Shown here piece after piece: positions 13,218-58,515 of a stretch of 64,000 bases of DNA; the first letter of the stretch is position 1, and each line of letters opens with the position of its first letter. The position numbers and the translations under genes were made by a program. Origin of the DNA: an uncultured Bacteroidales bacterium (GTDB lineage: Bacteria; Bacteroidota; Bacteroidia; Bacteroidales; VadinHA17); contig CAWFKI010000005.1 in assembly GCA_963816345.1 (NCBI GenBank), positions 2,399,572 to 2,463,571 of the forward strand. Direction: 5' to 3'. The notes under the pieces were generated by a model. That model made no database searches and was not told the DNA's origin. It was given only the letters and a program-made list of their open reading frames with translations.

Positions 13218-14326
13218 TCAATTCCGGTATTTTCCATATTCGTTTACCAATTCTGAAACCCGTTTTACCCTTCTCTCCAGAGCGTCAGGCGGGACCTGGT
13301 CGGCAACACCAAGAACAAAGCGGGGTCTCCGGATCATAATTGAGAGAAGGTATTTTACATGCCTGTCAAATTCCTCATCATCAACACAACCTGTAAAATA
13401 AGAGCCGGGTATTCCACCCCAGAGTATGCTGTCAGAGTTCCCTGAAAGGGTTTCAATATCTTCAAACCTGACATCACCTACCGGATAAGGCGTCAGCGCT
13501 TCCAGTACCGTAAATCCTACGCCTGCCTCATGCTCCAGTAATCCCTGTAATGTTCCGTCGATATGGATAAATGAGTATTTTCCGGCATCTCTTATCCTGG
13601 TTGTCCATTCCTTCTGATAATCGTACATATATAATTTAAACAGATCAGGGCCAACCATTTCTGAGGAGAGATTCTCAGGAATCATAAGAACCTCTGCCGG
13701 ACTGTCGACAGCGATCCGGGCTGCCTTGTCAAATGCCGTTTTCATAGTATTCAGAAGATCCCTGAACTCATCTGACATTGTCAGTGCCGCCATCGTTACA
13801 GCCTCAATACCCGCCTCCAGAGCCATGAGATGCATAAAGGGGCTTTTAGGCAGATAACACAAAACAACTCCCTGGTCGCCGACCTGTTCTCTCCGGAGGT
13901 CTGGCAATATCATAATCAGGTTCAAAATGAGTGTTTTCATAGATGATATTTCATAACCGGTATGTCATTTCCTGATTTAAGGAAATGTTCCACAGGACCT
14001 TCTGAAAACGATGTCGGGATATATTCCCAGCATTCCCTCACCCGGCCTGCCGGAGTGATGATTTCCTTATAATGCCTGTGGCCTTCATGCCACTCATTTA
14101 CCTTGCAACCCGAGATAATCTGTTTGTACGGGAAGTATCCCTGCAGATAAAATCCGACACCAAGCCTGCGATGCCAGTTGATATAATCTTCAGAGAGAAT
14201 AAAACCCTCTGGCTTGAGACCTCTTTTGATGAGTGAGTTTGCCCAATAATCAAGATCTCCGAACCATGGAACCTGATCCGGTTGTTTTCCGGAAAGTATT
14301 GTCAGTAGTCTTTCCCGATGGGTCAT
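13218..14326 (-). pseudogene. URO-D/MtaA-like family gene split into a 129-aa N-terminal and a 240-aa C-terminal ORF (frameshifted, or naturally two-part)
   Basis: The N-piece ('MTHRERLLTILSGKQPDQVPW') and the C-piece together equal one URO-D-like protein. The junction is an ATGA overlap at 13937-13940, and the two pieces are in different frames. A third frame reads 'YENTHFEPDYDIA' across the junction, so two nearby indels are also possible. Confidence 0.6.
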
Positions 14327-14406: not shown

Positions 14407-15759
14407 TTAATAAAGAACCTCTTTTTCAATCTGTTCGAGTGTTTTGCCTTTTGTTTCAATAATATTGTTCTTAAGATAGAAGAAGCCTATAAGTGTTACA
14501 CATGCGAGAAAGATGAATGCAAAGCTCATTCCCTTCTGCTGTTGTGCCAGTGTTATTCCGAACAGACCTACCACCTGGGGGAAGAGGAAGTTGAGAGAAG
14601 CGCTCACTCCCCAGTTGGCAAATGATCCGAGGGAAGCACCACGTGCCCTGATTATATTAGGAAACATTTCAGATAATAATACCCAGATGACAACTCCCAT
14701 TGATGCAGCAAAAAAAGCTATGTAGGCGACGAGCAGGAATACAAGCCAGTAACCTCTTATATTTCCGGAGAGCAGACCGTATCCGAACAATGCTAAAACT
14801 GTCACCATTCCCAGCTGACCTGTCAGCAACAGGTTCTTTCGTCCCACTTTGTCGATCACGGCCATTGCGAGCAGCGTAAAGACCAGGTTTGTCAGTCCGA
14901 GTATTACACTCTGAAGCATTGATGTGTCCGGTGAAAAACCTGCTATGCTGAATATCTGGGCTGAATAGTAAAACACAACTCCGATCCCTGTAAGCTGACT
15001 GAATATCCCAACAAATATCCCGATGAAGACAATCCTGCGGTAGGGTCTCTTAAACAGATTTATTCTCTTTGCAGCATTCTCGATATTGATTGATTCCTTT
15101 ATCTCAGTTATTGTTTGTTCGGTATCGATTTCATGCGAAGAGAGATCTTCAATATTCTTTCTGGCTTCTTCTATCCTCCCCTTTTTCACAAGCCAGCGGG
15201 GGCTTTTCCTTATAAAGAAAAGCATAAGGAAAAATACAACAGCAGGAATGGCACCACTGAAAAGCATCCATCGCCAGTTATTTTCACCTGTATTCAGAAG
15301 AAGATAGTTTGATATCAGCGACAATAAAATCCCGGTTACGATGGCAAGTTGAAATGTGGAAGCCAGCAACCCCCTGTGCTTTGGCGGAGATATTTCAGAG
15401 ATATACACAGGACAAAGCACTGAGGCACCGCCAATTGCCAGTCCTCCTATAAACCTGAAAAGAATAAATACATCGATTGTCGGCGCCAGGCCGCATCCGG
15501 CAGCAGAAATGAAAAACAATACCGCAAGAAGCTGTAACAGCCTCTGAGAGCCAAATATATCTCCCGGCTTTCCAATAAGAATGGTTCCGGCGATGCAACC
15601 CACAAGCGCCGAACTCACCGTCCAGCCCTGGATTGCAGGGGTCAGGTTGAAATGCCTTACCAGATCGAGCATTGCACCGTTTATTATGACGGTATCGTAG
15701 CCGAATAACAACCCGCCAAGGGCTGAAGCTATTGTACACTTGATGAGGACTCTGTTCAT
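14407..15759 (-). CDS. MFS sugar porter family transporter
   Basis: 450 aa with 'GGLLFGYDTVIINGA', 'PESPRWL' and 'ETKGKTLEQIE', which are sugar_tr signatures. Multiple TM segments. Confidence 0.9.
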   Translation of the reverse strand: MNRVLIKCTIASALGGLLFGYDTVIINGAMLDLVRHFNLTPAIQGWTVSSALVGCIAGTILIGKPGDIFGSQRLLQLLAVLFFISAAGCGLAPTIDVFILFRFIGGLAIGGASVLCPVYISEISPPKHRGLLASTFQLAIVTGILLSLISNYLLLNTGENNWRWMLFSGAIPAVVFFLMLFFIRKSPRWLVKKGRIEEARKNIEDLSSHEIDTEQTITEIKESINIENAAKRINLFKRPYRRIVFIGIFVGIFSQLTGIGVVFYYSAQIFSIAGFSPDTSMLQSVILGLTNLVFTLLAMAVIDKVGRKNLLLTGQLGMVTVLALFGYGLLSGNIRGYWLVFLLVAYIAFFAASMGVVIWVLLSEMFPNIIRARGASLGSFANWGVSASLNFLFPQVVGLFGITLAQQQKGMSFAFIFLACVTLIGFFYLKNNIIETKGKTLEQIEKEVLY

Positions 15760-20009: not shown

Positions 20010-20029
20010 CCTGCCTGCCGGCAGACAGG
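20010..20029. repeat. Imperfect copy of the CCTGCCTGCCGGCAGGCAGG palindrome (core only)
   Basis: 'cctgcctgccggcagacagg' has one mismatch to the perfect palindrome at 21790-21809. It lies about 30 nt upstream of the GH38 start, in a divergent intergenic region. Confidence 0.8.
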
Positions 20030-20242
20030 GAACCACACATGATTGTAAATTATATTTTTTCATATTTGTGATTGTTGTCAATCATGTGGGTTTCATCTGT
20101 TCAGATTTAAAAATTCCTGATTAAAATACGGACAAAAACCAAATATACAAGTTTACAAATGCTCTAAATGGGTTAACCTGAGAATAAGAGATTTAAAATG
20201 CAGTTTATATATTACTTTATATTCTGGTATCTGTTTTTCAGA

Positions 20243-25827: not shown

Positions 25828-27162
25828 TCACCCTGAGAGGTTCTCCCCCAGTTCCTCAAGGGTTCTCCCCCTGGTCTCAGGAAAATACCTCCAAACCACA
25901 AATACCTGCAGTAACATCATAGCTGAAAAGAACATAAATGCATGGCCTACTCCAAATTGCGATAACTTTTCAACTACGGGGAACAGGAAAGTAATAAGCG
26001 CTGCAAAAAACCAATGGGTAAAACTTCCGAATGACTGGCCTTTTCCACGGACACTGTTTGGAAAAATTTCGGCAATAAGTACCCAAATCACAGCGCCGGT
26101 GGAGAATGCAAAAAACATGATGTAAATAAGCAGGTATGCCAATAATCCAAATCCTGAAAAATCCTGCGAGTAAAATGTTCTGGCTACAAGCGCCAGACAA
26201 ACAGACATCCCCATTGATCCTGCAATAAGTAATTTCTTCCTGCCAACCCTGTCAATAAGCGTAAGTCCGAGAATAGTAAATATTCCGTTTGTCACCCCGA
26301 TCAGTATCGATTGAAACATTGAATCGGAATTGGTAAGTCCGCTGAGCGCAAAGATGCGCGGAGCATAATACAAAATTGCATTTATGCCTGAGAACTGGTT
26401 GAACATCGCTACCAGGAAAGCGACAGAGATCGGCTTAATATACAAATGCGAAAAGAGGGTCTGCTTTCTGACGTCCGATTGCGATACACTTGACTTTATC
26501 TCCTCTATCTCCTTGTCAACCGATACTATTTCTGTCTTTTCCAGTATTGCCCTGGCCGTATTTATCTTCCCTTTCTTTATAAGGAACCGGGGACTTTCAG
26601 GAATAAGAAACAGCAGGACCAGAAACAGGAATGCCGGTATGCCGGCAACACCAAGCATCCACCTCCATGGTTCGGAACCTGCATCCCGTAAAAGGAAATT
26701 GGAAACATACGCGATCAGTATCCCCGAAATGACATTGAACTGGAACATTGCGGTCATTCTTCCCCTTATTTTTGCAGGTGAAATCTCGGCAATGTACATA
26801 GGTGCCACTACGGAAGAGGCTCCCACCCCAATGCCGCCCAGGAACCTGAATATTATGAACGAAGCCACATTACCCGAAAGAGCACTTCCTGCGGCCGTGA
26901 TAACATATAAGGCAGCAATAACAAATAAAATGGGCTTTCTTCCGTACCTGTCTGCCGGCCTGCCGGAGATGAGTGCCCCGGTTACAGTCCCGATAAGCGC
27001 TGAAGAAATTGTAAATCCATGCAGAAATGAAGATAACTGAAAAAGTTCCTGTATATGTTGTTCAACCCCTGATATCACAGCAGTGTCAAAACCGAAAAGA
27101 AACCCTCCCAATGCGACAATTATTGACCATGTAAAGACATTTTTGTTTATTCCGGTTATCAT
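25828..27162 (-). CDS. MFS sugar porter family transporter
   Basis: 444 aa with 'GGFLFGFDTAVISG', 'PESPRFL' and 'PETRGRTLEEL'. Confidence 0.9.
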   Translation of the reverse strand: MITGINKNVFTWSIIVALGGFLFGFDTAVISGVEQHIQELFQLSSFLHGFTISSALIGTVTGALISGRPADRYGRKPILFVIAALYVITAAGSALSGNVASFIIFRFLGGIGVGASSVVAPMYIAEISPAKIRGRMTAMFQFNVISGILIAYVSNFLLRDAGSEPWRWMLGVAGIPAFLFLVLLFLIPESPRFLIKKGKINTARAILEKTEIVSVDKEIEEIKSSVSQSDVRKQTLFSHLYIKPISVAFLVAMFNQFSGINAILYYAPRIFALSGLTNSDSMFQSILIGVTNGIFTILGLTLIDRVGRKKLLIAGSMGMSVCLALVARTFYSQDFSGFGLLAYLLIYIMFFAFSTGAVIWVLIAEIFPNSVRGKGQSFGSFTHWFFAALITFLFPVVEKLSQFGVGHAFMFFSAMMLLQVFVVWRYFPETRGRTLEELGENLSG

Positions 27163-28394: not shown

Positions 28395-28553
28395 TTTTTA
28401 CTAAGATATTTATTTATATTTACAGTGCATAGAGGGAGCTCTATGAAAAGGCAGGTGAATATTTCATAAGAAGCTTTTTTCTGCTTTTTTATTTAAATAT
28501 CCAGTGTGTTTATCGCTATTGATTATATCTCTAATGTACAGGAACAGGAAATC

Positions 28554-29228
28554 ATGAAAAGAAGTGAGGTAAATAAAATAATAACAGACGTGGCAGCATT
28601 TTTTGAGAAACACCATTTTATGCTGCCTGAATGGGCGTCATGGCCGCCTGAGAAATGGCGGGGGATGTACAGCCAGTGTTCTGAGATAGTCGATAATAAA
28701 CTTGGCTGGGACATCACCGATTTCGGAAGCGGTGACTTCCTGAGATGTGGTTTGTCACTCTTTACAATACGGAATGGCAACTGGGATAAAAAAGACAAGA
28801 TGTATTGTGAAAAGATCATGGTGTCCGGAGAAGATCAGGAGACGCCGATGCATTTTCACTGGAATAAGACTGAAGACATAATAAACCGCGGAGGAGGTAA
28901 CCTGGTCATGGAACTTTATCAGGCCAAAGCCGACGACAGATTTTCCGAAGAACCGGTGACAATAAGCATTGACGGGGTACAACGGACAATCCCTGCCGGT
29001 AAACCTCTGATATTGGTGCCGGGTCAGAGTATCTGCCTTAAATCAAGGGTCTATCACAGGTTTTATGGTCAGAAAGGGAAAGGCCCGGTTTTAACAGGAG
29101 AAGTAAGTATGGTAAATGATGATGCCAGCGACAACCGTTTTTATGACGAGATCGGCCGGTTCCCTGAAATCGAGGAAGATACCAAACCGGTTCACCTGCT
29201 TGTTAATGATTATGCGAAGTATCTATAA
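28554..29228 (+). CDS. D-lyxose/D-mannose isomerase family (cupin) protein
   Basis: 'YCEKIMVSGEDQETPMHFHWNKTEDIINRGGG' matches the D-lyxose ketol-isomerase family core. The ATG at 28554 is preferred over the upstream GTG at 28506 (shown as M in the ORF track). Confidence 0.75.
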   Translation: MKRSEVNKIITDVAAFFEKHHFMLPEWASWPPEKWRGMYSQCSEIVDNKLGWDITDFGSGDFLRCGLSLFTIRNGNWDKKDKMYCEKIMVSGEDQETPMHFHWNKTEDIINRGGGNLVMELYQAKADDRFSEEPVTISIDGVQRTIPAGKPLILVPGQSICLKSRVYHRFYGQKGKGPVLTGEVSMVNDDASDNRFYDEIGRFPEIEEDTKPVHLLVNDYAKYL

Positions 29229-29256: not shown

Positions 29257-30441
29257 ATGCCGGAAAAGATCATAGTATCAGGGGTTGGTTGCTGCCTGGT
29301 CGACCTCTTATTCAATAATGTTGATTTCGGAAGCGCCGGAATACTCCCCTACCTTTCATCAACACGGGGTGACGGAGGATTGACTCCCGGCCATCTTGTT
29401 TTTAAGGAAGAATTTGAAAGATTCAGTGGAGATTCTTTCGAATCAGTGCTCAACAGGATCACAGGTGGAAGAAAATATGACAAGATTAACATCGGAGGGC
29501 CGTCTGTTGTATCACTTATAAACGCAGCACAGCTGACTGATAATGAGCAGTGTGAAGTACGGTTTTATGGCCGGGGAGGTAACGATGAGATTGGCAGCTA
29601 TCTTTTATCAGCCCTTCAAAAGACTCCTGTGGTTTTAAAGGATTTCAAACTTATCGATAATCAGACTCCTTCCACTGTGGTGCTGTCAGATCCCTCATAT
29701 GAACATGGTCATGGTGAAAGAATGTTCATCAACTCTATCGGGGCAGCATGGGAATATGGCCCCGAAAATATTGACAATGATTTCTTTAATTCGGATATCG
29801 TCGTCTTCGGAGGGACAGCCCTGGTGCCGCAGATACACGACAGCCTGACTCACCTGCTTAAAAAAGCCAGGTCAAAAGGATGTATTACCGTAGTAAATAC
29901 AGTTTTTGATTTCAGAAATGAAAAAGCAAGTCCTTCAGGGAAATGGCCCCTGGGTGATAGTGATGAAAGCTATAATTACATCGATCTGCTTATTACTGAC
30001 CAGGAGGAGGCCTTCCGTCTCAGTAATTCCGGAAATCAACAGGATGCAATCAGGTTTTTCATCGAAAACAGGGTCTCATCATTTATCATAACTAACGGAT
30101 CAAAAGATATAACACTTTACTCCGACGGACGATTTTTCAAAAGCTCAGGAATAACGAAGATGCCTGTTTCAGAAAAGGTTATAAAAGAAAGAAAGAATAC
30201 GGGTGGAGACACCACCGGCTGCGGGGATAATTTTGCAGGAGGGGTGATAGCATCTATAGTGACTCAGATGAAAAATGGAGCATTTCATCCCGATATCACC
30301 GAAGCATGCTGCAGGGGAATTGTATCAGGCGGCTTTGCCTGCTTTTACCTTGGAGGTACCTATTTTGAAGATAACAGTGGTGAAAAACGGTCAAAAATGG
30401 AACCGTATTATGATGCTTACAGAAGACAGATCGAAGGCTGA
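29257..30441 (+). CDS. PfkB-family carbohydrate kinase
   Basis: 394 aa. 'GGDTTGCGDNFAGG' is the PfkB C-terminal ATP/anion-hole signature. Confidence 0.8.
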   Translation: MPEKIIVSGVGCCLVDLLFNNVDFGSAGILPYLSSTRGDGGLTPGHLVFKEEFERFSGDSFESVLNRITGGRKYDKINIGGPSVVSLINAAQLTDNEQCEVRFYGRGGNDEIGSYLLSALQKTPVVLKDFKLIDNQTPSTVVLSDPSYEHGHGERMFINSIGAAWEYGPENIDNDFFNSDIVVFGGTALVPQIHDSLTHLLKKARSKGCITVVNTVFDFRNEKASPSGKWPLGDSDESYNYIDLLITDQEEAFRLSNSGNQQDAIRFFIENRVSSFIITNGSKDITLYSDGRFFKSSGITKMPVSEKVIKERKNTGGDTTGCGDNFAGGVIASIVTQMKNGAFHPDITEACCRGIVSGGFACFYLGGTYFEDNSGEKRSKMEPYYDAYRRQIEG

Positions 30442-31633
30442 TGCCCGTAAAATAGTAATTTTCGGTGCAGGTAAAATAGGGCGGTCATTTATCGGCCAGT
30501 TATTCGGCAGCAGCGGATATGAGGTCATATTCATTGATGTTGACCAGGCTGTTATCGACCTCCTTAACAAAAGAGGCAGTTACCGGGTTGTGATAAAGGG
30601 TGAACGGGAGGAACAGATCAGGGTTCCGAATGTAAGAGCTATCTCAGCATCCGACAGGCCAAAAGTAATAGATGCAGTTTCTTCCGCGGGGATTTTAGCA
30701 GTATCAGTGGGTAAAAACGCTCTTGAAAAAGTAATCCCGCTTATTGCTGCCGGTCTTGTTAAAAGGTATGAGAAAAATTCGTCCGGACCGCTTGACATAA
30801 TACTGGCAGAGAATATGAGATCTGCAGCCGATTTTACAAGGGGCGAGCTTATAAAACATCTCCCCGGAGGATTTCCTGTTGAATCGTATGTCGGGCTTAT
30901 TGAGACAAGCATTGGTAAAATGGTTCCTATAATTCCACTGGCTGAACTGGAGAAAGATCCCCTCGTTGTGTTTGCAGAACCTTATAACACATTGATACTA
31001 GATGGTAAAGGCTTCAAATCGCGGATCCCTGAAGTAAAAGGTCTGGCTCCGAAAAATAATATAAAAGCCTGGGTCGACCGTAAAGCATTTATCCATAACC
31101 TTGGCCATGCGACAGCTGCCTATTATGGCTACTCACTTCATCCTGAAGCTGTATATATGTATGAGATACTTGATGATCCTGATGTTTTCCGGTTCACAAG
31201 GAAAGTAATGGTGCAGTCAGCAGCGATACTCAGGAAGGCATACCCCGATGAGTTTACTGCTTCAGATCTTGAGGAGCATATTGATGATCTTATTTCCCGC
31301 TTCAGGAACAAAGCACTGCAGGATACTATTTTCCGAGTGGGTCAGGATCTGCCCAGGAAGCTGGGCCCCGATGACAGGTTCATGGGTTCCGTTCACCTGG
31401 CAACAAGGTTCAGGATGCCTTACGACATGATAATTAAAGCAATGACATATGGTCTTTTCTTCAGGGCAACTGACGAGGAGAAAAATCCTTTTCCTCGTGA
31501 CAGCTCCTTCCTGAATGCAGTATCAAAGGACTTTGAATCGGCATTTATCAACACTCTTGGATTTAACAAGGCTACTGACCTGAAATTCATAAATGAACTA
31601 AGGGAGTTGTATAACACCCTCCGGCTAAAATAA
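30410..31633 (+). CDS. mtlD: Mannitol-1-phosphate 5-dehydrogenase family protein
   Basis: It aligns by eye with E. coli MtlD throughout: 'FGAGKIGRSFIG', 'LDIILAENM', 'VDRKAFIHNLGHATAAYYG', 'RVGQDLPRKLGPDDR'. The likely start is the ATG pair at 30410/30413, overlapping the PfkB gene end. The listed 30275 start is an out-of-frame overlap artefact. Confidence 0.8.
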   Translation: MMLTEDRSKADARKIVIFGAGKIGRSFIGQLFGSSGYEVIFIDVDQAVIDLLNKRGSYRVVIKGEREEQIRVPNVRAISASDRPKVIDAVSSAGILAVSVGKNALEKVIPLIAAGLVKRYEKNSSGPLDIILAENMRSAADFTRGELIKHLPGGFPVESYVGLIETSIGKMVPIIPLAELEKDPLVVFAEPYNTLILDGKGFKSRIPEVKGLAPKNNIKAWVDRKAFIHNLGHATAAYYGYSLHPEAVYMYEILDDPDVFRFTRKVMVQSAAILRKAYPDEFTASDLEEHIDDLISRFRNKALQDTIFRVGQDLPRKLGPDDRFMGSVHLATRFRMPYDMIIKAMTYGLFFRATDEEKNPFPRDSSFLNAVSKDFESAFINTLGFNKATDLKFINELRELYNTLRLK

Positions 31634-31654: not shown

Positions 31655-32326
31655 ATGATGAAAAATTTTGAGATCATAAGCAGCCACATAAAGGCATCGT
31701 TATCAAAATCCGGTCTGTTATTATTTCTCGCCGGATCCATGATCATTATGGGCATTATTACAAGTGAAATATTCTATAAAACGGAGTTCACCACGAAAAA
31801 TAATTATCTGAGCGAACTGGGCGTCCCCTTGTCTGCCCCGCAAACCGGACCTGTGATTGCCGCACTGATCTTTAACTATACCATGATCGTAACAGGTATT
31901 ATGATACTGATCTCTGCATATTTTGTTCAGGTGATATTTAAAAAACTGCTCACTGCCATACCTCTTGGATTGTTTGGTCTGGGAATACTGGGAGTTGGCA
32001 TTTTCCCCGGAAATATCCACCCCTGGCACGGCATCTTTGCCCTGGTACTATTTATTGCAGGAGGAACAGGAGCTATAACCTCCTATAAGATAGTAAGTGC
32101 ACCGCTCAGATACATTTTTATATGTTCCGGTATAATCACACTTGGATTTCTTATTTCCTATAAATATTTTATACCCTCGCTGGGAGTCGGTGGAACCGAA
32201 CGGTGGGTACTTTATCCTGCCCTTTTATGGATCATCGGATTAGGAGGGTATCTGCTTGGGATTAAAGATGAATACAAACATATTTCACGTGTAAGAAATG
32301 ATCCCGGCGTTCATGATGATGTATAA
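31655..32326 (+). CDS. Polytopic membrane protein (DUF998-like), function unknown
   Basis: 223 aa with about six hydrophobic segments. The family assignment is tentative. Confidence 0.4.
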   Translation: MMKNFEIISSHIKASLSKSGLLLFLAGSMIIMGIITSEIFYKTEFTTKNNYLSELGVPLSAPQTGPVIAALIFNYTMIVTGIMILISAYFVQVIFKKLLTAIPLGLFGLGILGVGIFPGNIHPWHGIFALVLFIAGGTGAITSYKIVSAPLRYIFICSGIITLGFLISYKYFIPSLGVGGTERWVLYPALLWIIGLGGYLLGIKDEYKHISRVRNDPGVHDDV

Positions 32327-32415: not shown

Positions 32416-33420
32416 ATGACCCGGAGGGAAGTTATAAAAAAAGTGCTGGACGGTAAAAAACCGCCCTACACGCCATGGTCGTTCAAATTTACGGTGGAGG
32501 CTAAAAGGCTGCTGCAGAATTATTACAATACGGAAGATCTTGATAACAACCTCTTTAATCATGTGCTGATGCTTGGGGCCGACATCGGCTTTTTTGACCG
32601 GATAGGAGATAATCTCTTCCGCGATGTTTTTGGCGCAGTATGGGACAGAAGTATTGATAAGGATATCGGCAATATAACAGGAAGCATAATAAGTGAACCT
32701 TCGCTTAAGAACTATACCTTCCCCGATCCCCTTGACAAGAGGATCTTCGTTGATATCGCGCCTTCAATCAAAGCCCATCCTGATATGTTCCGTCTTTTTG
32801 AGATCGGCTTTTCACTTTATGAGCGTGCATGGACCCTGAGGGGAATGGAGAACCTGTTAATGGATTTTATGGTTAATCCTGGTTTTGTGCATGAACTGAT
32901 GACAGCTATTGCAGATTATAATATTTCCCAGCTGAGAGAGGCTGCGAAATATGATATCGATGCGGTTGCCTTCGGAGATGACTGGGGACAGCAAAGCGGT
33001 CTTATCATGGGTTACGCTACATGGAAGGAGTTCATATATCCTCAGCTGAAGCGTATGTATAAAGCCGTGCATGATGAAGGCAAGTACGTATTTATCCATT
33101 CATGCGGAGATGTCGACGAACTATTTGATGATCTGATAGATATAGGATTGAATTGTTTTAATCCATTCCAGCCGGAGGTAATGGATGTACTGGCATTAAT
33201 GAAAAAGTACCGCGGCAGGCTTACATTCCACGGAGGGTTATCAATTCAAAAGACGCTCCCGTACGGGACCATGGAAGAAGTGAAGGCTGAATCTGAAATG
33301 CTTCTAAGGGCAGGTTCTGAAGGGTCATACATCTTCTCACCTTCCCATGCTGTAGAGGGTGACACATCGCTTGAAAATATGCTCATTTTCATAAATGCGG
33401 CGCAATCCCAGTTAAAATAA
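32416..33420 (+). CDS. URO-D/MtaA-like family protein (H-x-C ... H variant)
   Basis: 334 aa with N-terminal '[18 protein letters not shown]', then 'IHSCGD' and 'SPSHAVEG'. No HemE 'MRQAGR' motif. Confidence 0.75.
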
Positions 33421-33433
33421 GCCAGATTCAATT

Positions 33434-34837
33434 ATGACTGATAATAAAAACATCAATACCGGATATGTGGTGTTCCTCGCTCTTGTATCCGCAATGGGCG
33501 GACTGCTGTTCGGATACGACTGGGTAGTTATCGGGGGAGCCAAACCCTTCTATGAACGGTACTTTGATATCGCATCATCTGCTACATACCAGGGTTTTGC
33601 AATGAGCAGCGCACTTTTTGGCTGTATTATCGGATCAGCCGTTTCAGGCAGTATAACCGATAAATACGGAAGGAAGATTCCCCTGCTCTTTTCTGCCTTC
33701 CTCTTTATTATTACCTCCATCGGAACAGGCGCCTTTAATTCGTTTGCTTCCTTTATGATCTTCCGGATTATGGGAGGTATCGGCATAGGAATTGCTTCCA
33801 ATGTTTCGCCTGTTTACATTGCTGAAATATCTCCTGCGCACATGAGAGGCAAGCTTGTCTCGATAAACCAGTTTACAATCGCTTTTGGTGTTCTGGCAGC
33901 GCAGCTTACAAATATGATTATTGCTGAACCTGTTGCTGTCGGAGCAACTGATGAGCTGATTCGCAATTCATGGAACGGACAGATGGGATGGAGATGGATG
34001 TTCTGGGCATGCAGTGTTCCCGCTACCCTCTTTTTTATACTAATGTGGCTTGTTCCTGAAAGCCCCAGATGGCTGACCAAGGCAGGCAGGAAAGATAAGG
34101 CGATGAGGGTTTTTGAAAGGATCGGTGGAAAAGAATATGCCATAACAGAAACCGATGATATAAGCCTCTCATTATCAATGTCTGAAAAACAGGGTACAAA
34201 AGAGAAATTCAGCAATCTCTTTACAGGACAGCTGGCACCTATAATCACCCTTGGTGTAATCCTTGCAGTGTTTCAGCAATGGTGTGGAATAAACGTGATT
34301 TTCAATTACGCGGAAGAGATATTTTCAGCAGCCGGTTATGGAATCTCAGGTACTCTCTTTAATATTGTCCTCACCGGAACCGTAAGCCTCATATTCACAA
34401 TTCTTGCAATGTTTATTGTCGACAGGTATGGCCGGAAGATCCTTATGCTGACCGGTGCCGGAGGACTGGCAATAGTCTATGTAGTTATTGCCACTGGTTA
34501 TTACCTGCATTTCAGCGGTATTTTTATGGTATTCTGGGTCGTTACTGCAATAAGTATTTACGGTCTTACCCTGGCGCCGATTACCTGGGTTCTGCTTTCA
34601 GAGATATTCCCGAATAAAATACGCGGCCATGCCATGTCTGTTGCTACTTTTGCGCTCTGGACATCATGTGCCATACTTACATTATCCTTTCCATTCCTTA
34701 ACAGGGGCCTGGGGACATCGGGTACATTCGGCGTTTATGCCGCAATCTGTTTCATGGGATTCTTTTACATACTCAAAAAGCTGCCGGAAACAAAGGGTAA
34801 ATCGCTTGAACAGATTGAGAGGGAACTTACATCATGA
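33434..34837 (+). CDS. MFS sugar porter family transporter
   Basis: 467 aa with 'GGLLFGYDWVVIGGA', 'PESPRWL' and 'PETKGKSLEQIE'. Confidence 0.9.
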   Translation: MTDNKNINTGYVVFLALVSAMGGLLFGYDWVVIGGAKPFYERYFDIASSATYQGFAMSSALFGCIIGSAVSGSITDKYGRKIPLLFSAFLFIITSIGTGAFNSFASFMIFRIMGGIGIGIASNVSPVYIAEISPAHMRGKLVSINQFTIAFGVLAAQLTNMIIAEPVAVGATDELIRNSWNGQMGWRWMFWACSVPATLFFILMWLVPESPRWLTKAGRKDKAMRVFERIGGKEYAITETDDISLSLSMSEKQGTKEKFSNLFTGQLAPIITLGVILAVFQQWCGINVIFNYAEEIFSAAGYGISGTLFNIVLTGTVSLIFTILAMFIVDRYGRKILMLTGAGGLAIVYVVIATGYYLHFSGIFMVFWVVTAISIYGLTLAPITWVLLSEIFPNKIRGHAMSVATFALWTSCAILTLSFPFLNRGLGTSGTFGVYAAICFMGFFYILKKLPETKGKSLEQIERELTS

Positions 34838-34894
34838 CTGAAATAAAACTATCAGTTTAGAGTTAAGATTACGAAGAATAAAAAAATAAGCAAC

Positions 34895-36079
34895 ATGAAT
34901 TCAAAAGAAAGGATGATTGCGGCAATGAGCCATGAGACTCCTGACAGGGTACCGGTTATGTGCCAGCTATCGCTTGGTCATTATTTTTTGAACTGCAAAT
35001 ACAAGCCATCGGAAATCTGGTTTGATTCCGATACATTTGCCAGGGCGCTGACAGACCTCCAAAAGGAATATAACTTTGATGGCATCCTGGTAAATCTGCC
35101 CGGAAGACCTCACGATTGGGAAAAATACCTGGCATCCAGGGAGAAAGCAGACGGTTCTGAAATACTTGTGTGGAAGGATGGTTATGAGACACATGTCCCT
35201 CCTGATGATAACGCCCATACGTTTCTTCCGGGTAAAGTTCCTCTTCCCCGCGCCACATTTGAATTTACTGATCTGAAAAACCCCGCTGAATTTATAACAC
35301 GCGGCTATATCTGGAACACCTATCATATGCCCGGATTATGGGGTTTTGATAGTGATGCCGATTTAACTGATCCTGCTTCATATCCGGCATCGTTCACAAA
35401 CGCTGTGAAAGCAGTTAAGAAATATGCCGGCGATATTTCAATTCATGCAGAGGTCTTTTCCCCTTTTACCCATTTACTTGAACTGTTCGGTTATGAAGAA
35501 GCTTTGATGGGAATGATGGTCTATCCCGATCTCTGCCGGGAGCTGCTTGCGTATTTTACAAGGATTGCCCTGGCAGAAGTAAACGTCTATGCCAGGGAAG
35601 GAGGCATCGATGCAATACTGGTAAGTTCAGCATTTGCCGGTGCAGGTTTTATAAGCCGGAATGATTACAGGCAGTTTGTAATGCCTTTTGAAGAACCTGT
35701 CTACAAAGAGATCAGGCGGTTCGGCCTGTTCAGCTATGTGCATACCTGCGGTTCCATTGGCGACCGTCTCGACCTGATGGCTGAAATGTCAGTCGATGGC
35801 ATTGATACCCTAGATCCCCCGCCCCTCGGAACTGTTCATCTTGAAGAAGCAAAGGAAAAATTCGGAAAGAGATTCTTTCTGAAAGGAAACCTCGACTCGA
35901 TAAATGAATTACTCAATGCTGACGATAAAACCTTTGAAGAAGCAGTGACGGGGAGAATCAGGACAGGAAAGCCTGGCAGCGGCTATATTCTGTCCACTGC
36001 CTGCAGCGTATCTCCATACGTTAAACCCGAAAGGCTGAAACGACTCGCTGAGCTTTCGGTCATGTATGGCAAATATTGA
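34895..36079 (+). CDS. URO-D/MtaA-like family protein, zinc-motif type
   Basis: 394 aa with N-terminal 'ERMIAAMSHETPDRVPVM'. 'VHTCGS' plus 'STACSVSP' form an H-x-C...C motif. Confidence 0.75.
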   Translation: MNSKERMIAAMSHETPDRVPVMCQLSLGHYFLNCKYKPSEIWFDSDTFARALTDLQKEYNFDGILVNLPGRPHDWEKYLASREKADGSEILVWKDGYETHVPPDDNAHTFLPGKVPLPRATFEFTDLKNPAEFITRGYIWNTYHMPGLWGFDSDADLTDPASYPASFTNAVKAVKKYAGDISIHAEVFSPFTHLLELFGYEEALMGMMVYPDLCRELLAYFTRIALAEVNVYAREGGIDAILVSSAFAGAGFISRNDYRQFVMPFEEPVYKEIRRFGLFSYVHTCGSIGDRLDLMAEMSVDGIDTLDPPPLGTVHLEEAKEKFGKRFFLKGNLDSINELLNADDKTFEEAVTGRIRTGKPGSGYILSTACSVSPYVKPERLKRLAELSVMYGKY

Positions 36080-37358: not shown

Positions 37359-38853
37359 TTAATACAACGACTTTAATACCGGGTAAAGCTTCTTATAGAT
37401 GCTGAATTTTCTATCGTAATAATCTTTCTGCATTGGTTCAGCCCGGGAAACAGGCTTTACCCACCGGGCAGCAATTTTGCCAACATATTCACCTGTGTCG
37501 TGGGCTTTTGCCAGCATTGCTACTCCCATGCATCCCGCCTCAGTCACGTCCGGAATTGTAACCGGCATTCCAATCACATCGGCTTTCAGCTGAACCTGTT
37601 TTTTGGATCTTGCACCTCCTCCTATCATTCTCAGCTCCTTTACCTCATATCCCGATTCCCTCAGGATTTCGAGATTCAGCCTGATCTCAAGAGCTACTCC
37701 TTCCAGCAATGCTTTCAGTATATCCTCCCTCGTAGTAGTAAGATCCATACCTGTTATTGCTCCTTTTACCGATACATCAAAATAGGGAGTGCCTGATGGG
37801 GTGAAATATGGAAGAACAAGCAGATCCGAATGTTTTTCAGGCATGGCATCAATTAGCAGCTCAAAAGGATCTCTTTTTTCTATCCTGGCCCTTTCAACTT
37901 CGGCATCTCCGAACTGATCCCTGAACCATTTTAGTATATTTCCGCCTGTCAGACTGAAGGCAACTGTCGCATACATACCGGGAGCTGTATGATCATAGGT
38001 GCAGAGATTGTTTTTGCGAAGTTCCGGTGTAAAAACCGCTCTCTCAAATGCCGGCGTAATACACTCAACGGTTCCTGATGCAAAAACAGCCATGCCGGGT
38101 TCAATAGCTCCGGCTCCCAGGGCTGAACAGGGCTGATCATGCCCTCCCGTAACAATAAATGTGTTTGCAGAAAGATTCAGCCCCGGTGCGATCCGTGGAT
38201 CAATATAACCTGCAAGTAAACCTGACTGAAGAGGAACAGATAGTTGCCCTGCCGTCAATCCGGCAGCATCAAGTATTCCGGTGTCCCATTTATGGTTTAC
38301 AACGTCGAAGAGCATTGTTCTCCCGGCAAGCGGCCAGCCTATTGAGGGATTTTTTATGCCTAACCGGTATTGCAGGAGATCTTCAAAGCAAAGTATCCTG
38401 TGAGCCTTCTCCCATATTTCCTTATAATTTTCTCTAATCCACAGCAACTTGAACAATGAGAACATCGGATGGGGAGTGTGTCCGGTAATACTGTAAAGTT
38501 TCTCTTCCCCGAACCTGTCTGTCCATGGTTTTATAAGTTCATTAGCCCGTATATCTGATGAGACAAGGGCATTACAAAGTGCCTTACCTTTTTCATCAAT
38601 TATGGTGAATGCCTCGCCCTGGCTTGATATCCCTAATCCCCTGATTGACCTTTGAATCAATTCCTGATGCAGATTCGCGAATCACATCAAAGCATTTATT
38701 AATGACCTCATCGGTATCAAGCTCAGCCCATCCCGGATGTTGTGAGATCAGGTCATAACCCCTGTAGGAATCCGAAACCTGATGTCCGGCTTCATCAAAG
38801 ATCACAGCCTTGCAACCGCTTGTCCCGATATCTATTCCGAGGTAATAGTTCAT
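37359..38853 (-). pseudogene. FGGY-family carbohydrate kinase (xylulokinase-like) with one frameshift
   Basis: N-terminal 'MNYYLGIDIGTSGCKAV' (ATG at 38853) and C-terminal 'IGGGARSKKQVQLKADVIGMPV'. The ORFs 38596-38931 and 37359-38660 are in different frames, and the join '...SASGIDSK/IRGLGISSQGE' is near 38625-38650. Confidence 0.85.
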
Positions 38854-38896
38854 CTCTGTTTGTAATGTTCCGTTCCGGGTGTAAAGGGTTAAATCT

Positions 38897-39901
38897 TCAG
38901 ACGTACCAGAGGTTGAGGTAATCAAGTACAATTTTCTTCATCTCTTCAAAAATAATATCCTGCCTGTAAAGAGTTGTATAATGCGATAGTGATGCCTTCC
39001 CTGTTTTATCCGCATTATCACCGAGGAGACCTTCCCGGAACATAGCCTCAGCCTTTTCCTGTCCTGTTATTTTTGAAGCATTCCTTACCATATCTTCAAA
39101 AAGGACGGGGGAGCTGTTCCTTTCCAGAATTGTCCAGATATTGACTTTTGCTATCCCGTCGTTAAAAAGATTTCTGATCTGGTCATTCCCTACCGACGAT
39201 GTTCCGTGCAATACCAGTACAGTACCTGTCAGCCTGCTTATCTCCCTTGCCAGTTCTCCGTGATATTTAAGATCGGCAGCGCTTGCCCTGTGTTCGGTTC
39301 CAAGGTTGGCAACAATAAAATCCGCTCCTGTCTGCTTCAGGTATCTTAATGCCTGGTCTGGTGTTGTCAGATCGCTCCTTGTATCACCCGTTGCATCCAC
39401 AATCTCATCGCAGGCGCCCTCAATTACTATCTGGCGTCGGTTTTTTTCAATAAATTCTGCTGTCTTTTTTATATTCTCTTCAAAAGGCAGTGCAGATGCA
39501 TCATACATGATCATTGAAAACCTGTCCATATCCCATTCCAGCAGAGGCCGGTCAGCATCCCACTGGGTATGATCGAGGTGGATCATCACATTGAGTTTTT
39601 CAAACGGGGATCCCCTGCCAGTCAGTATATCCAGATCGGCAAGAAAGAGCCTCAGCCCTATATCCCATTTTCTGGTATGGGTATAATAAACTGACTGGCT
39701 GCGATGGCTGTACTGATTGGTAATACCTATCGTAACAGGCAGATGAGGAAAATCTATTGTCTCGCTGTATTCAAGGGCAGCAGATAAGATAGCTTCTGTC
39801 GTCGTGAGATTTTCACTGTTAAATGTAGGGATTACCCATTTTTGTTCACCGGCTTCCCTGTAAATATCCAGAACATTGTTTCTATCAAGAATTAGTGGCA
39901 T
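38897..39901 (-). CDS. Class II ketose-bisphosphate aldolase family protein (FBA/tagatose-bisphosphate aldolase type)
   Basis: 'IHLDHTQW', 'MYDASALPFEENI', 'LGTEHRA' and 'LVLHGTSS' match class II aldolase metal and phosphate-binding motifs. The ATG at 39901 ('MPLILDRNN') is preferred over the TTG at 39949. Confidence 0.8.
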   Translation of the reverse strand: MPLILDRNNVLDIYREAGEQKWVIPTFNSENLTTTEAILSAALEYSETIDFPHLPVTIGITNQYSHRSQSVYYTHTRKWDIGLRLFLADLDILTGRGSPFEKLNVMIHLDHTQWDADRPLLEWDMDRFSMIMYDASALPFEENIKKTAEFIEKNRRQIVIEGACDEIVDATGDTRSDLTTPDQALRYLKQTGADFIVANLGTEHRASAADLKYHGELAREISRLTGTVLVLHGTSSVGNDQIRNLFNDGIAKVNIWTILERNSSPVLFEDMVRNASKITGQEKAEAMFREGLLGDNADKTGKASLSHYTTLYRQDIIFEEMKKIVLDYLNLWYV

Positions 39902-41018: not shown

Positions 41019-42406
41019 CAAAGAGCGATTGCTTTTATCCCTGTCAGTTCACAAAATGCTTTAAGCTCTTCATACAGATGGGCCCCGTATCCGAGACAGG
41101 CGTACTCATTGTTCCATGACTGCAACAGGGATTCGATATCGCATTCAGCTTTTACGAAGCCATGAGGCCAGAATGGAATGCCACATTCGTTCTTTCTCCG
41201 TTCAAGTTCACCGGCAGGCGGTTCGAATATTGTGCAACGTGTAATGACCATTTCAAAGAGGCCATTATTCCTTCCCAGTCTGGCAAGAACTCCTTCACCT
41301 ACCTTGCAAACGAGCTTTATTGATAAACCTCCGGCCTCGCCTTCTGTCGGGATGCCATGTTCCGCAAAACCTGCGGGTCCAAGCTTTCCGGCCAGTGAAG
41401 GCGGACAGGCGCCATCACCAATAATCTTAATCTCATTGTTCGATTTATCAATATGCTGAAGATCACCATAATAAATCGGATCAGCGCTTAAATCCGTGAG
41501 ACATTTTACCGTCAGTGCGGTATTGAAATCCCCAAGGGTCGAGGTACCCATGCCATCCTCCAGGATCATGCTCTGGGCAAAGCATGTAGCACTGTACTCA
41601 TCGCCCAGTCCGGGGAATGACTGAATTGTATAAAAGTCCCACTCATTCTTTTTTACCAGTTTCTTAATCGCCAGATAGAGCCGTATTGATCTTTCAGACT
41701 GATCATTTTCAGGAATTGGTTCGGAAAAAAGTTTCTGAATCCGTTTTTTTGCTTTAGTTATCTCCTCCGCTGTTATCTTTTTTGCTGTATCGAGTAATTC
41801 CGATGTATCTCTTGAATCAATATCTATTCCAAAGGTCTTCATCCATTGTGAAGGATCGGCAGCTCCGCATGTCTGGCCCATTCCTCTTCCTCCGAATGTG
41901 CCAATGGTGCTCATGTTCAGGGAATTTTTCATGGCGCTTGCCCGGCAGTAAGAGGTGATCTTTTCAACCTCCTCCGGGTCCTCAAAGCTCCCGTAGACAA
42001 ACCGGTGTTTTATTCCTATCTCTTTAAGGGCTCCCTGCATTACCAAGCCCCCTACCGGTCTCCATCCCTGGCTTCCCGGATTGGTCCAGAGGATAATTCC
42101 CCTGCCGGTAGTGGCAAAATCGCGGATAGCTGCTATAAGATGGGCTGCCCATACCCAGGTGCCGGAAAACAGGATCACAGCATCAACATCGTTCATTTTT
42201 TTGAATTTATCAAAGCAGTCCCTCGCCTCCTTTTTTGAGGCAATCACCAGTTCATGTTCCACGAGATCGATGCCGCTTTTCCTGAGGGCTTCTTTCGCAC
42301 CACTCACAATACGGTCATCAATAAAAGGTGTTCCCATCGGATCCTGCAGTCCGTCCTTATGAACACCATAGACTATAAATCCAACCCTGGCTTTGATCAT
42401 ATGCAT
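41018..42406 (-). CDS. L-fucose/L-arabinose isomerase family protein, tentative
   Basis: 462 aa with an N-terminal Rossmann-like 'VGFIVYG...DAVILFSGTWVWA' region and a central 'TFGGRGMGQ', as in FucI/AraA-like sugar isomerases. The start overlaps the amidohydrolase stop (TAATG). Confidence 0.5.
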   Translation of the reverse strand: MHMIKARVGFIVYGVHKDGLQDPMGTPFIDDRIVSGAKEALRKSGIDLVEHELVIASKKEARDCFDKFKKMNDVDAVILFSGTWVWAAHLIAAIRDFATTGRGIILWTNPGSQGWRPVGGLVMQGALKEIGIKHRFVYGSFEDPEEVEKITSYCRASAMKNSLNMSTIGTFGGRGMGQTCGAADPSQWMKTFGIDIDSRDTSELLDTAKKITAEEITKAKKRIQKLFSEPIPENDQSERSIRLYLAIKKLVKKNEWDFYTIQSFPGLGDEYSATCFAQSMILEDGMGTSTLGDFNTALTVKCLTDLSADPIYYGDLQHIDKSNNEIKIIGDGACPPSLAGKLGPAGFAEHGIPTEGEAGGLSIKLVCKVGEGVLARLGRNNGLFEMVITRCTIFEPPAGELERRKNECGIPFWPHGFVKAECDIESLLQSWNNEYACLGYGAHLYEELKAFCELTGIKAIAL

Positions 42407-43498
42407 TATTTTAATGTTAAATTAATTTCATTTTTCAGAGAAGGTATTATTCTCAGTATATTTTCATAATATACTCTCCTCAGAACCTCCGGGGGAAGAC
42501 CTATTCCGCAAATCGGCCATCGCGACCTCTCAAAAGTGCCGTCATAATCGGGGGAATAAAATGACTCATCATAAGTTTCAAGGAACCTGAAATAAGTGCG
42601 GTACATCTCAACGGAACTATCAATATTCGCCGGCATATCGGTCCCGAAAATAATCCTGTCCTGGTGCTTTATGAAGAATTCTCTGGCAGTATATGGCTGC
42701 CGTCCCAGTTCATCCAGCCTGGCAGAGAAATCGATATAGACATTTGGATTATCAGTAAGTAATTCCGAAACATACCTGATATTTTCAGGCATAATTCCCG
42801 AAATGAGGCAGAATAAAAGTTGTGCCGGGATGCTGCCTGATAAGATCATCGCGTCTTTTTAGCAAATCAGTCTTGCGCGGATATTTCGGATCGGCAAAGC
42901 TCCATGACGGGATATTTCTTCAGTGATTCAAAATGTTCATTTTCAGGAGTAGCCGGTTCAAAAAAACCTGACGGATCTGCCTGGTGTATCAGTACCGGCA
43001 TATTCAGCCGTCCGGCTTCTTCCCAGATCGGAAAAAGCCTTGGGTCATTACAGTTGATAAGTTCACCGGCTGCATCCCTGTAATGAAGTCCAAGCTCCTT
43101 GAGAATCTTAAGTCCTTTTGCTCCCTGCTGAACATGAAGATTCAGAGTCTCAATACACTCATGCCACAAACTGTTTATGATCAGTAAAAAGCGGCCTGTC
43201 TGCACGGCCTGGCAAAATCAGCCATTGTAAAACAGTAGAAACGCCCGGGATATTTATGTGCGCAATTCTGAAAGAAATCCCGAATATTGCCCGGGTTTAT
43301 TACATATCCTCCTTCAGAAAATTCAATATGAACATTCCCGGTCAGATCACAATAGCTTACTACCCCAACTTCATCAAGTGTTTCAATGACCCTCGATACC
43401 TGCCAGTTTCCCCAGAGATGGTTATGTGCATCAATAACAGGGAATGCTGCCCTGACTATCTCAGTCTGATTATGAACCAGCCAGTTCTTTTTTGCCAT
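42406..43498 (-). pseudogene. Amidohydrolase-2 family (PF04909-like; lactonase/decarboxylase type) gene with three frameshifts
   Basis: 'VIDAHNHLW' at the N-terminus. The pieces 43181-43537, 42867-43205 and 42406-42849 are in three frames. A further stretch, 'SWSFADPKYPRKTDLLKRRDDLIRQHPGTTFILPHFGN', reads in the frame between the last two. The shifts are near 43195, 42895 and 42790-42805. Confidence 0.8.
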
Positions 43499-43562
43499 TA
43501 TGGTTTTTTTTCTTAATTTATCTATAAAAATGCCCAATGACGATAAGGTAGATTATATTCAC

Positions 43563-57186: not shown

Positions 57187-58515
57187 CTATTTTTTCCAAA
57201 GCAACTCTATCTCTTCCAAAGACTTACCTTTTGTCTCAGGAACGAACATCAATGTAAACAGCCACTGGATAAACGACATTAAAGCAAGGAAAAGAAAGGT
57301 GATCGCTCCTCCCAGAAGGGCAAGAAAGTGCGGAAAAAGCAATACAACAAGAAAATTGAATATCCATTGTGTAAAAGAGGCAAATGCCAGCGCCTTTCCC
57401 CTTATCCTGTTTGGAAATATTTCTGATACCAGTGTCCAGAATACCGGGCCGATGCAGGAAGAGAAAAATGCCAGGAAGAGCATGATACAGATCAGTGTAA
57501 ATATTCCCTCCATTTTCAGATAGAACGACAATGCCAGCAAAACCAGAGTAACCGCCATTCCCATTGAACCTATCAGATAAAGGATTCTTCTGCCAACCTT
57601 ATCAATTAAAAGTATGGCGACAAATGTGAAAATAAAGTTGATAAGACCGAGCAGGGAGGTCTGAAGCAGTGCATTTTTTATCTCCACCCCCGCAGCAAGT
57701 AATATCTTTGGTGCATAGTCAATAATTGTATTTATACCGCTGATCTGCACCAGTATGGCAAGAAAAAATCCAACAAGCATCACTTTCCTTGATGAGAGCC
57801 TGAACAGCTCTCCTCTTGCAGCCGGCTTATCGTTGCCGCCCAGTGATTCTGCTATCTCCCTGATCTCGGAATGTGCCAGGGTCTCACCACCAATTTTTAT
57901 CAGAACCTTCAGGGACTCAGCTTTTTTCCCGGCTTTATAAAGCCAGCGCGGGCTTTCAGGGATAAAGAACAACCCGGTAAAAAACAGCACTGAGGGTACG
58001 ATCCCTGTGGCAAACATCCACCTCCAGTTGTTTTCAATACCGTGAAGCCAGTAGTTGATCGTATAGGAACATAATATGCCGAGTACTATTGTGAGCTGAT
58101 AGACAGCCACCAGCATGCCCCGGATATCAGGTGGTGCCACTTCCGCGACATACATCGGGGACAAAACTGAAGCTGCACCCACAGCCAGTCCGCCAAACAG
58201 GCGTGCGGAAATAAAAAGAACCGAAGAATCTGCCAGAGCTGTCAACGCGCATGAGACAGCAAAGAACAGTGCCACTACTATCAGAACTCTTTTACGTCCG
58301 TATTTATCTGTAAGGATCCCGGAGCCAAAGGCCCCGACGACTGCCCCCACAAGGAGAGAGCTTACACCCCAGCCAAGCTCCAGTTCATTCCATCCGAAAT
58401 AGGTTTGTATAAATGGTACTGCCCCTGATATAATCGCGATATCAAACCCGAACATCAGCCCGCCCATTGTCGCAACCATACATATAAAATACAAGTATCC
58501 CCTGTCCCTCTTCAT
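57187..58515 (-). CDS. MFS sugar porter family transporter
   Basis: 442 aa with 'GGLMFGFDIAIISGA', 'PESPRWL' and 'PETKGKSLEEIE'. Confidence 0.9.
   Translation of the reverse strand: MKRDRGYLYFICMVATMGGLMFGFDIAIISGAVPFIQTYFGWNELELGWGVSSLLVGAVVGAFGSGILTDKYGRKRVLIVVALFFAVSCALTALADSSVLFISARLFGGLAVGAASVLSPMYVAEVAPPDIRGMLVAVYQLTIVLGILCSYTINYWLHGIENNWRWMFATGIVPSVLFFTGLFFIPESPRWLYKAGKKAESLKVLIKIGGETLAHSEIREIAESLGGNDKPAARGELFRLSSRKVMLVGFFLAILVQISGINTIIDYAPKILLAAGVEIKNALLQTSLLGLINFIFTFVAILLIDKVGRRILYLIGSMGMAVTLVLLALSFYLKMEGIFTLICIMLFLAFFSSCIGPVFWTLVSEIFPNRIRGKALAFASFTQWIFNFLVVLLFPHFLALLGGAITFLFLALMSFIQWLFTLMFVPETKGKSLEEIELLWKK

Follow-up and report, generated by a model that had tools for sequence, protein, structure and literature searches.

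A 64,000-nt stretch of DNA from an uncultured Bacteroidales bacterium (contig CAWFKI010000005.1), referred to here as the window, encodes four proteins related to uroporphyrinogen decarboxylase (URO-D), which we call A, B, C and D, and four sugar porters of the major facilitator superfamily (MFS1 to MFS4). A preliminary description of the sequence had drawn attention to this enrichment, and it is real. Two groups of these genes were distinguished, module 1 (MFS1, B and A) and module 2 (C, MFS3 and D). The three open reading frames of module 2 have the positions, strand and lengths reported earlier (Table 1). We examined module 2 and its relatives in other genomes and consider the possibility that C is an anaerobic sugar O-demethylase.

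Table 1. Genes of the module 2 operon, of module 1 and of the remaining sugar porters. Coordinates are window positions; Pfam was run on all open reading frames of at least 90 amino acids (aa).
Feature	Coordinates	Strand	Remarks
D-lyxose/D-mannose isomerase-like gene	28506..29228	+	opens the operon; true start likely at ATG 28554
PfkB-family sugar kinase, divergent	29257..30441	+	Pfam PfkB 57.5 bits
Mannitol-1-phosphate 5-dehydrogenase-like (MtlD-like) gene	30275..31633	+	real start probably ~30410
DUF998 polytopic membrane protein	31655..32326	+	directly 5' of C; Pfam DUF998 43.9 bits
URO-D-like protein C, 334 aa	32416..33420	+	PF01208; putative triad His228-x-Cys230...His311
MFS sugar porter MFS3, 467 aa	33434..34837	+	Sugar_tr 352 bits
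URO-D-like protein D, 394 aa	34895..36079	+	PF01208; putative MtaA-type triad His283-x-Cys285...Cys370
URO-D-like protein A, 340 aa	12174..13196	-	PF01208 221 bits, full length; full MtaA-like HxC..C
URO-D-like protein B	13218..14326	-	HxD..D variant; frameshift in assembly gives 129-aa and 240-aa open reading frames
MFS sugar porter MFS1	14407..15759	-	Sugar_tr 349 bits
MFS sugar porter MFS2	25828..27162	-	Sugar_tr 371 bits; no adjacent URO-D-like gene
MFS sugar porter MFS4	57187..58515	-	Sugar_tr 392 bits; no adjacent URO-D-like gene

Module 2 closes a conserved catabolic operon that spans about 7.6 kb (28.5-36.1 kb) in this anaerobic bacterium. The genes share one strand with intergenic gaps of 13-89 bp. 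As described before, module 2 runs in the same direction as the lyxose/mannose isomerase, PfkB and MtlD-like genes, and it follows them closely. The order LyxIso-PfkB-MtlD-(S15 peptidase-like)-DUF998-C-MFS is kept in at least eight independent contigs, where C is 82-97% identical to that of the window; among the loci from relatives, numbered with an L, it was found in L086-L093, L005 and L049. Synteny of the isomerase-like gene is kept in L087, L089-L091, L005 and L049, the PfkB gene adjoins it in relatives too (69-94% identity), and the DUF998 gene lies upstream of C homologs in L086-L090, L092 and L093. The retention of the isomerase/kinase/MtlD order with C-MFS supports the earlier proposal that the product of module 2 enters hexose or ketose metabolism.

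The isomerase-like protein matches Pfam Lyx_isomer with 323 bits and NCBIfam LyManIsomGneg with 281 bits, below the equivalog cut-off of 350. The MtlD-like protein has the Mannitol_dh and Mannitol_dh_C domains and scores 223 bits with the NCBIfam MtlD models, below their cut-offs. MFS3 is a sugar porter by TIGR00879 (330.7 bits, subfamily cut-off 237.8) but its 384 bits with the XylE equivalog do not reach the cut-off of 608. A scan of the window for sigma-70 promoters and terminators returned counts at chance expectation and defined no operon boundaries.

All four URO-D-like proteins score above the PF01208 cut-off of 23.9 bits (C, 81.3; D, 104.6; A, 220.9 over its full length; the C-terminal part of B, 41.1). 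None is a true HemE: with the equivalog TIGR01464 (cut-off 302.95) C, D and A reach 21.9, 33.1 and 96.6 bits. HemE has PF01208 and the fold in common with them but lacks the metal triad, and it serves tetrapyrrole synthesis as opposed to sugar catabolism here. The sole solved structure detectable by sequence for C and D is MtaA of Methanosarcina mazei (PDB 4ay7), and PDB profile searches with the family alignments found no solved relative nearer than MtaA/UROD. The motifs read earlier from the two proteins, IHSCGD and SPSHAVEG in C and VHTCGS and STACSVSP in D, are present and align to the HxC...C of MtaA, those of D in register with its His-x-Cys...Cys. At the third ligand position, where MtaA has Cys, C has His311. 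By comparison with MtaA, the putative zinc triad HxC..C is present in D and A, with HxC..H in C and HxD..D in B. H228/C230/H311 are invariant throughout the C family and H283/C285/C370 throughout the D family. The C, D and A families each hold thousands of homologs at 60-90% identity with invariant motifs.

The AlphaFold2 model of D (predicted local distance difference test, pLDDT, 79; predicted template modelling score 0.87) matches MtaA and UROD equally well in Foldseek, with template modelling (TM) scores of 0.64-0.77. MtaA is the top match, and MetE and the homocysteine domain of MetH are also among the fold matches of D. The URO-D (beta/alpha)8 fold is common to these proteins and to MtaA, MtbA and MtsA, the methylcobamide:coenzyme M methyltransferases (MT2; PDB 4ay7/4ay8), and D and A keep the His-x-Cys...Cys triad, A being the most MtaA-like of the four. 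Identity to MtaA is only 16-25%, however, C has a His for the second Cys, and D has an extra beta-rich insertion at about residues 79-110. MtaA is found in methanogens, whereas the window belongs to a glycan-degrading bacterium that encodes these proteins beside sugar porters.

We compared 83 loci that carry a C homolog. Nine of 13 informative loci in the window's own clade, which is at least 71% identical to C, encode an MFS3-like porter directly downstream. In a sister clade, 62-71% identical to C, it is a corrinoid protein that is encoded directly downstream of the C homolog (12 of 42 informative loci). Altogether 20 of the 83 loci encode a corrinoid protein, all within the 62-71% clade. 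This protein of 212 aa has B12-binding (PF02310, 104 bits) and B12-binding_2 (PF02607, 79 bits) domains and the motif GDLHDIGKN (DxHxxG). Two gene sets follow it. The first consists of a protein like the MetH activation domain (Met_synt_B12) and a second URO-D-like gene, whose product carries HxC..C and is most similar to A of the window. The second set is a radical-SAM (S-adenosylmethionine) activase with a glycyl-radical enzyme, further URO-D paralogs being encoded upstream. Corrinoid-linked loci also hold SSF or MFS transporters, AraC regulators, L-arabinose isomerase and glycoside hydrolases. The pairing of a variant with a full HxC..C protein, remarked on earlier in both modules, is real, and the complete corrinoid systems have precisely this make-up.

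A Pfam census of 125 neighbors of C homologs was led by MFS_1 (9), B12-binding (7), Sugar_tr (6), DUF998 (5) and SSF (4), with B12-binding_2 also among the leaders and sulfatases and glycoside hydrolases next. Elsewhere, homologs of both C and A occur in SusC/SusD loci. The C and A families are abundant in Bacteroidota, for example in Prolixibacteraceae. Corrinoid-linked and MFS-linked C homologs have fixed differences at just three positions, all conservative, which argues for the same chemistry in both.

Genes of MT1 enzymes, which pass a substrate's methyl group to a corrinoid protein, typically adjoin the gene of their own corrinoid protein. The position of C homologs directly upstream of a corrinoid protein gene fits C being an MT1. 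We propose that C is most likely an anaerobic sugar O-demethylase. An O-methyl sugar would be brought in by the adjacent MFS porter, and C would transfer its methyl group to the Co(I) of a corrinoid protein. In the methanol:corrinoid methyltransferase MtaB, Zn acts as a Lewis acid on the substrate oxygen. By analogy, a metal bound at the His-Cys-His(-Glu) site of C could act as a Lewis acid on the ether oxygen and polarize the C-O bond. The demethylated hexose, possibly mannose, would then be isomerized and phosphorylated by the products of the upstream genes. Genes for the corrinoid protein, for its reductive reactivation and for methyl transfer to the acceptor would have to lie outside the window. 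We give this mechanism as a whole a probability of about 0.5, as its key step, the corrinoid-dependent methyl transfer by C, is extrapolated from the sister clade.

Several observations weigh against this proposal. We found no corrinoid protein in the window by Pfam, by tblastn with an authentic neighbor-encoded corrinoid protein (best E-value 4) or by a scan for DxHxxG...SxL...GG. The window also holds no reactivation factor (RACE/RamA or MetH activation domain), no pterin-type methyltransferase, and no cobalamin riboswitch or other Rfam family at gathering thresholds. In the window's own clade all 13 informative loci lack a corrinoid protein gene within about 8 kb, and corrinoid dependence of that clade would be an extrapolation from the sister clade. 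The same gene is missing from all 82 D-family and all six A-family loci. With the MtaA/CmuA subfamily model TIGR01463 (cut-off 235.4) none of C, D and A passes (70.4, 73.0 and 159.5 bits), and the AlphaFold2 model of C (pLDDT 56) is too poor for inspection of the site. That the substrate is an O-methyl sugar we infer from context. In Planctomycetota, finally, D homologs are paired with a secreted PQQ-propeller/SAM-methyltransferase fusion (see below), which the model does not explain.

These observations bear on a second explanation, in which C and D are cobalamin-independent metal enzymes, each acting alone on a sugar from its own transporter. The reaction could be MetE-like, with the alkyl group of a protonated methyl ether passing directly to a thiol activated by the metal, or another metal-dependent reaction on a sugar derivative, and corrinoid linkage would be a specialization of the sister clade of C. 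The split within the C family is clean: no MFS-linked C homolog has a corrinoid protein gene next to it, and no corrinoid-linked one has that MFS porter. In the A and D families a single URO-D-like gene repeatedly stands beside a transporter gene with no corrinoid protein. Such a reaction would also agree with the MetE and MetH matches of D and with the membership of cobalamin-independent MetE and epoxide:coenzyme M transferase in the UroD superfamily (PMC10418091). Still, the 62-71% identity between corrinoid-linked and MFS-linked C homologs, with so few fixed differences, speaks for one chemistry. Corrinoid proteins are able to act in trans, and the closest sequence relatives of known function are methylcobamide methyltransferases. 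We regard the cobalamin-independent route as possible, if on the unlikely side.

A third explanation keeps the corrinoid and changes the substrate. The proteins would be corrinoid methyltransferases for non-sugar methyl compounds, such as methyl-sulfur or methyl-selenium compounds or methanol from methyl-esterified glycans, and adjacency to the porters would reflect co-regulation rather than a common substrate. The precedent is the widespread type 1 mlp clusters (Kountz and Balskus, PMC10418091), which in anaerobes likewise combine several diverged MtaA-like paralogs with a corrinoid protein and no folate methyltransferase and for which a methyl-sulfur/selenium role was proposed. The HxC..C site of MtaA, moreover, activates a thiol. 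As judged from their published description, however, mlp clusters occur mainly in Firmicutes and use a RACE activase, whereas the families described here are found in Bacteroidota and the Planctomycetota-Verrucomicrobiota-Lentisphaerota (PVC) group, are linked to transporters and glycoside hydrolases, and have a MetH-type reactivation domain in their loci. Same-strand coupling to a sugar porter, with gaps of 6-30 bp, recurs in three independent URO-D-like families and points to the transported sugar as the substrate, as does the placement inside sugar isomerase/kinase operons. A non-sugar substrate thus seems quite improbable.

The nearest functional parallels are corrinoid-dependent methyltransferases of the URO-D superfamily, both MtaA-type MT2 enzymes and the MT1 enzymes of O-demethylases. 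In the bacterial and archaeal aryl O-demethylases (OdmB/VdmB/MtvB/MtoB) the MT1 is a member of this superfamily (PMC10418091). They follow a like scheme, in which a methyl ether is the donor, Co(I) the nucleophile, and a distinct corrinoid protein and a factor for reactivation take part. Operons of corrinoid-linked C homologs match it in encoding an MT1-like protein, a corrinoid protein, a reactivation domain and a second URO-D-like protein. They differ in that the presumed substrate is an aliphatic sugar methyl ether, reactivation would rely on a MetH activation-domain-like protein instead of the RACE ATPase, a pterin-binding MT2 is lacking, and the genes lie within polysaccharide utilization loci (PULs); in the window the system is incomplete.

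The proposed role itself, removal of a methyl ether from a monosaccharide, has been assigned in glycan utilization loci to an unrelated fold. The 6-O-methyl-D-galactose demethylase is an O2-dependent cytochrome P450 (Reisky et al. 2018; PMC6292453), and it is the sole characterized sugar demethylase (PMC6292453). The P450 route is an oxidation releasing formaldehyde, whereas the system considered here would be an O2-independent methyl transfer. Anaerobic demethylation of methyl-galactose "has not been elucidated yet" (PMC12316285, 2025). Our full-text literature searches found no paper tying these proteins, or corrinoid proteins, to PULs. The biology of these genes is a plausible and testable lead on an acknowledged open question.

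A wider reading would take in all the transporter-coupled MtaA-like families (C, A, D and their paralogs) as the missing O2-independent sugar O-demethylases of anaerobic glycan degraders, each specific for its imported methylated monosaccharide. The corrinoid protein could be supplied in trans, or clades never linked to a corrinoid protein could use a MetE-like cobalamin-independent metal-thiolate route. Substrates might include the O-methyl-mannose of microalgal and moss N-glycans and the methyl-galactose of red-algal glycans. We hold this reading tentatively and at less than even odds; if true, dozens of unrecognized PUL components would be spread across Bacteroidota and PVC bacteria. For the window, N-glycans rich in O-methyl-mannose, like those of Chlorella and mosses (PMC6344472, PMC8773788), are a speculative substrate that would fit its alpha-mannosidases and mannose isomerase.

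O-methyl sugars occur in many algal, plant, fungal and bacterial glycans. A large and highly conserved MtaA-like family linked to sugar transporters and corrinoid proteins in glycan loci supplies concrete candidate genes for their anaerobic demethylation. If C acts as proposed, a B12-dependent step would be added to anaerobic polysaccharide degradation in sediments and guts, glycan use would be tied to cobamide availability, and the annotation of thousands of genes as "uroporphyrinogen decarboxylase" would be corrected.

Protein D has a distribution of its own. It has more than 5000 homologs at 57% identity or above, with many invariant residues including HTCG/STACSV. Outside its own lineage its nearest kin, 62-65% identical, are from Sedimentisphaerales, Phycisphaerae and Pirellulales (Planctomycetota). 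D follows MFS3 only in the window, in L086 and L088 and in four metagenome-assembled genomes labeled "uncultured Bacteroidales"; other close relatives have C-MFS without D. It was appended to the operon in one Bacteroidales sublineage. In PVC bacteria a D homolog stands beside an SSF symporter in seven loci. In about 25 Planctomycetota loci (L006-L046, for example L029:76-3312) it lies directly 3' of a gene in the same orientation, at a median distance of 75 bp, whose product has about 1078 aa. This partner carries a signal peptide, and its class I SAM-methyltransferase domain has PQQ/BamB-like beta-propellers on either side.

Two roles can be considered for D. It might be a methyl-corrinoid:acceptor transferase (MT2-like), or an independent transporter-coupled enzyme with the same chemistry as C and another substrate. 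An acceptor-side partnership with C in this lineage appears rather unlikely, as most C-MFS loci are without D. We down-weighted it further on account of 75 PVC loci with neither a nearby corrinoid protein nor a C-type gene. More probably, D is an independently acting paralog acquired horizontally from the PVC gene pool.

The preliminary description had taken modules 1 and 2 for copies of one URO-D-like/porter/URO-D-like unit. Under this explanation an ancestral three-gene module was copied as a whole, and A/D and B/C would be orthologous pairs forming heteromers of a zinc-type and a variant protein. Each module does combine an HxC..C protein with a variant, the proteins do share the N-terminal motifs PD(R/K)VPVM and P..PW, and a UROD-MFS-UROD-UROD arrangement exists at the module 1 locus of L171. 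The N-terminal motif is general to the URO-D family, however, and aligns to MtaA as well. Module 1 does not have the same architecture either, since its minus strand reads MFS-B-A, that is MFS-UROD-UROD.

In pairwise BLASTP the four URO-D-like proteins are mutually 20-27% identical (29-52 bits), and B scores higher with D (52 bits) than with C (30 bits). The porters are mutually 35-40% identical and do not pair by module: MFS1 is nearest MFS2 (40%) and MFS3 is nearest MFS4 (37.6%). In a neighbor-joining (NJ) tree of the window proteins plus 48 homologs and paralogs of related loci, A falls with A-like proteins, including the second URO-D-like protein of the corrinoid operons, B with another paralog set, C within its own large family and D within a separate one. 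Each of the four has far nearer kin elsewhere than in the window. Quartets from 200 NJ bootstraps gave A/D-B/C in only 27-28%, A/C-B/D in 50-68% and A/B-C/D in 5-21%. The bootstraps give no firm deep order for the four proteins and do not favor the A/D and B/C pairing. In gene content, B and D are each absent from close syntenic relatives, and the D family is centered in Planctomycetota while the C family is centered in Bacteroidota. On pairwise BLASTP, the NJ tree and the bootstrapped quartets we reject duplication of the whole module, which we consider very improbable.

The conserved unit is instead one cytoplasmic MtaA-like enzyme of the URO-D superfamily with one sugar transporter: C followed by MFS3, MFS1 followed by A, and D beside SSF in PVC bacteria. 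B and D are extra paralogs that were added in particular lineages. At the module 1 locus the MFS1 gene directly precedes A in L166-L171. The closest syntenic relative, L166, matches 1-17 kb of the window in full synteny (A 94% identical) and has MFS-A without B, as do L167-L170. In L171 (6248-11023) three URO-D-like genes surround the MFS1 ortholog, in the order URO-D (355 aa, HxD..H)-MFS-B-A. Paralog number at this locus is fluid, with one, two or three URO-D-like genes in relatives.

B is split in this assembly, which might be taken to mean that the URO-D-like genes are decaying relics without function. The thousands of homologs of C, D and A with invariant motifs contradict this, and B is intact elsewhere. 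A short-read contig of ERR11594405 encodes an intact B of 368 aa, with an identical A downstream of it, and the L171 ortholog is intact as well (367 aa; 78% identical over 366 aa). Loss of function is accordingly the explanation to which we give the least credence, close to none.

At least five genes of the window, including B, are broken into adjacent open reading frames. The others are an FGGY kinase (37359-38931), a GH38 gene (17299-20038), a GlcNAc-2-epimerase-like gene (15964-17225) and an amidohydrolase (42406-43537). The short-read assembly of ERR11594405 encodes identical A and D together with the intact B and an intact FGGY kinase of 523 aa, and relatives have intact GH38 (about 893 aa) and epimerase (about 420 aa) genes. 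Because the genes are intact in the short-read assembly with identical neighboring proteins, or in relatives, the breaks are most likely indel errors of this probably long-read assembly and not pseudogenes.

The surroundings of the operon are rich in sugar genes. Downstream of D, on the opposite strand, are genes for GH172, an FGGY kinase, a class II aldolase and an isomerase-like protein. Across the whole window glycoside hydrolases are densely represented (GH92, GH38, GH29, GH20, GH28, GH116 and GH123-like). Pfam found no SusC or SusD domain among its open reading frames, and thus no adjacent SusC/SusD pair by which a PUL is recognized.

Other C loci vary in gene content. The DUF998 protein is kept directly 5' of C in the MFS-linked clade (eight loci) and might be a further component of transport, for instance of a cofactor or of the methylated product. 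L001/L003, L004 and L087 have extra genes beside C-MFS(-D), between MFS3 and D or after MFS3. Their products are an enoyl-CoA hydratase, an AMP-binding acyl-CoA synthetase and an ADP-ribosylglycohydrolase, together with a protein of some 720 aa whose C-terminal domain is of the formylglycine-generating enzyme (FGE)-sulfatase type; the window encodes none of them. In L117, L125, L142 and L153 (for example L125:8192-11040) the C-like/corrinoid operon leads into the radical-SAM activase and a glycyl-radical enzyme like pyruvate formate-lyase (PFL). Here the upstream URO-D paralogs are two, of the HxC..H and HxD..H types, and an L-arabinose isomerase is encoded downstream.

Elsewhere in the window, a second sugar-porter cluster (57187-63289) encodes, with MFS4, a xylose-isomerase-like TIM barrel, two GFO/IDH/MocA oxidoreductases (one GH109-like) and a 3-keto-disaccharide hydrolase, suggesting an oxidative (3-keto-glycoside) route of glycoside cleavage. 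A second 3-keto-disaccharide hydrolase is encoded at 5651-6418. There are three GH123-related proteins (6667-9675, 23164-25791 and 44812-46527), two of them very large and matched almost end to end by PF19543 "GH123_N" (1261 and 904 bits). A four-carbon acid sugar kinase-like gene (SBD_N/NBD_C) and, next after it, a PdxA-family dehydrogenase gene lie at 827-3135, a pairing known from threonate/erythronate-type catabolism and not from pyridoxal synthesis.

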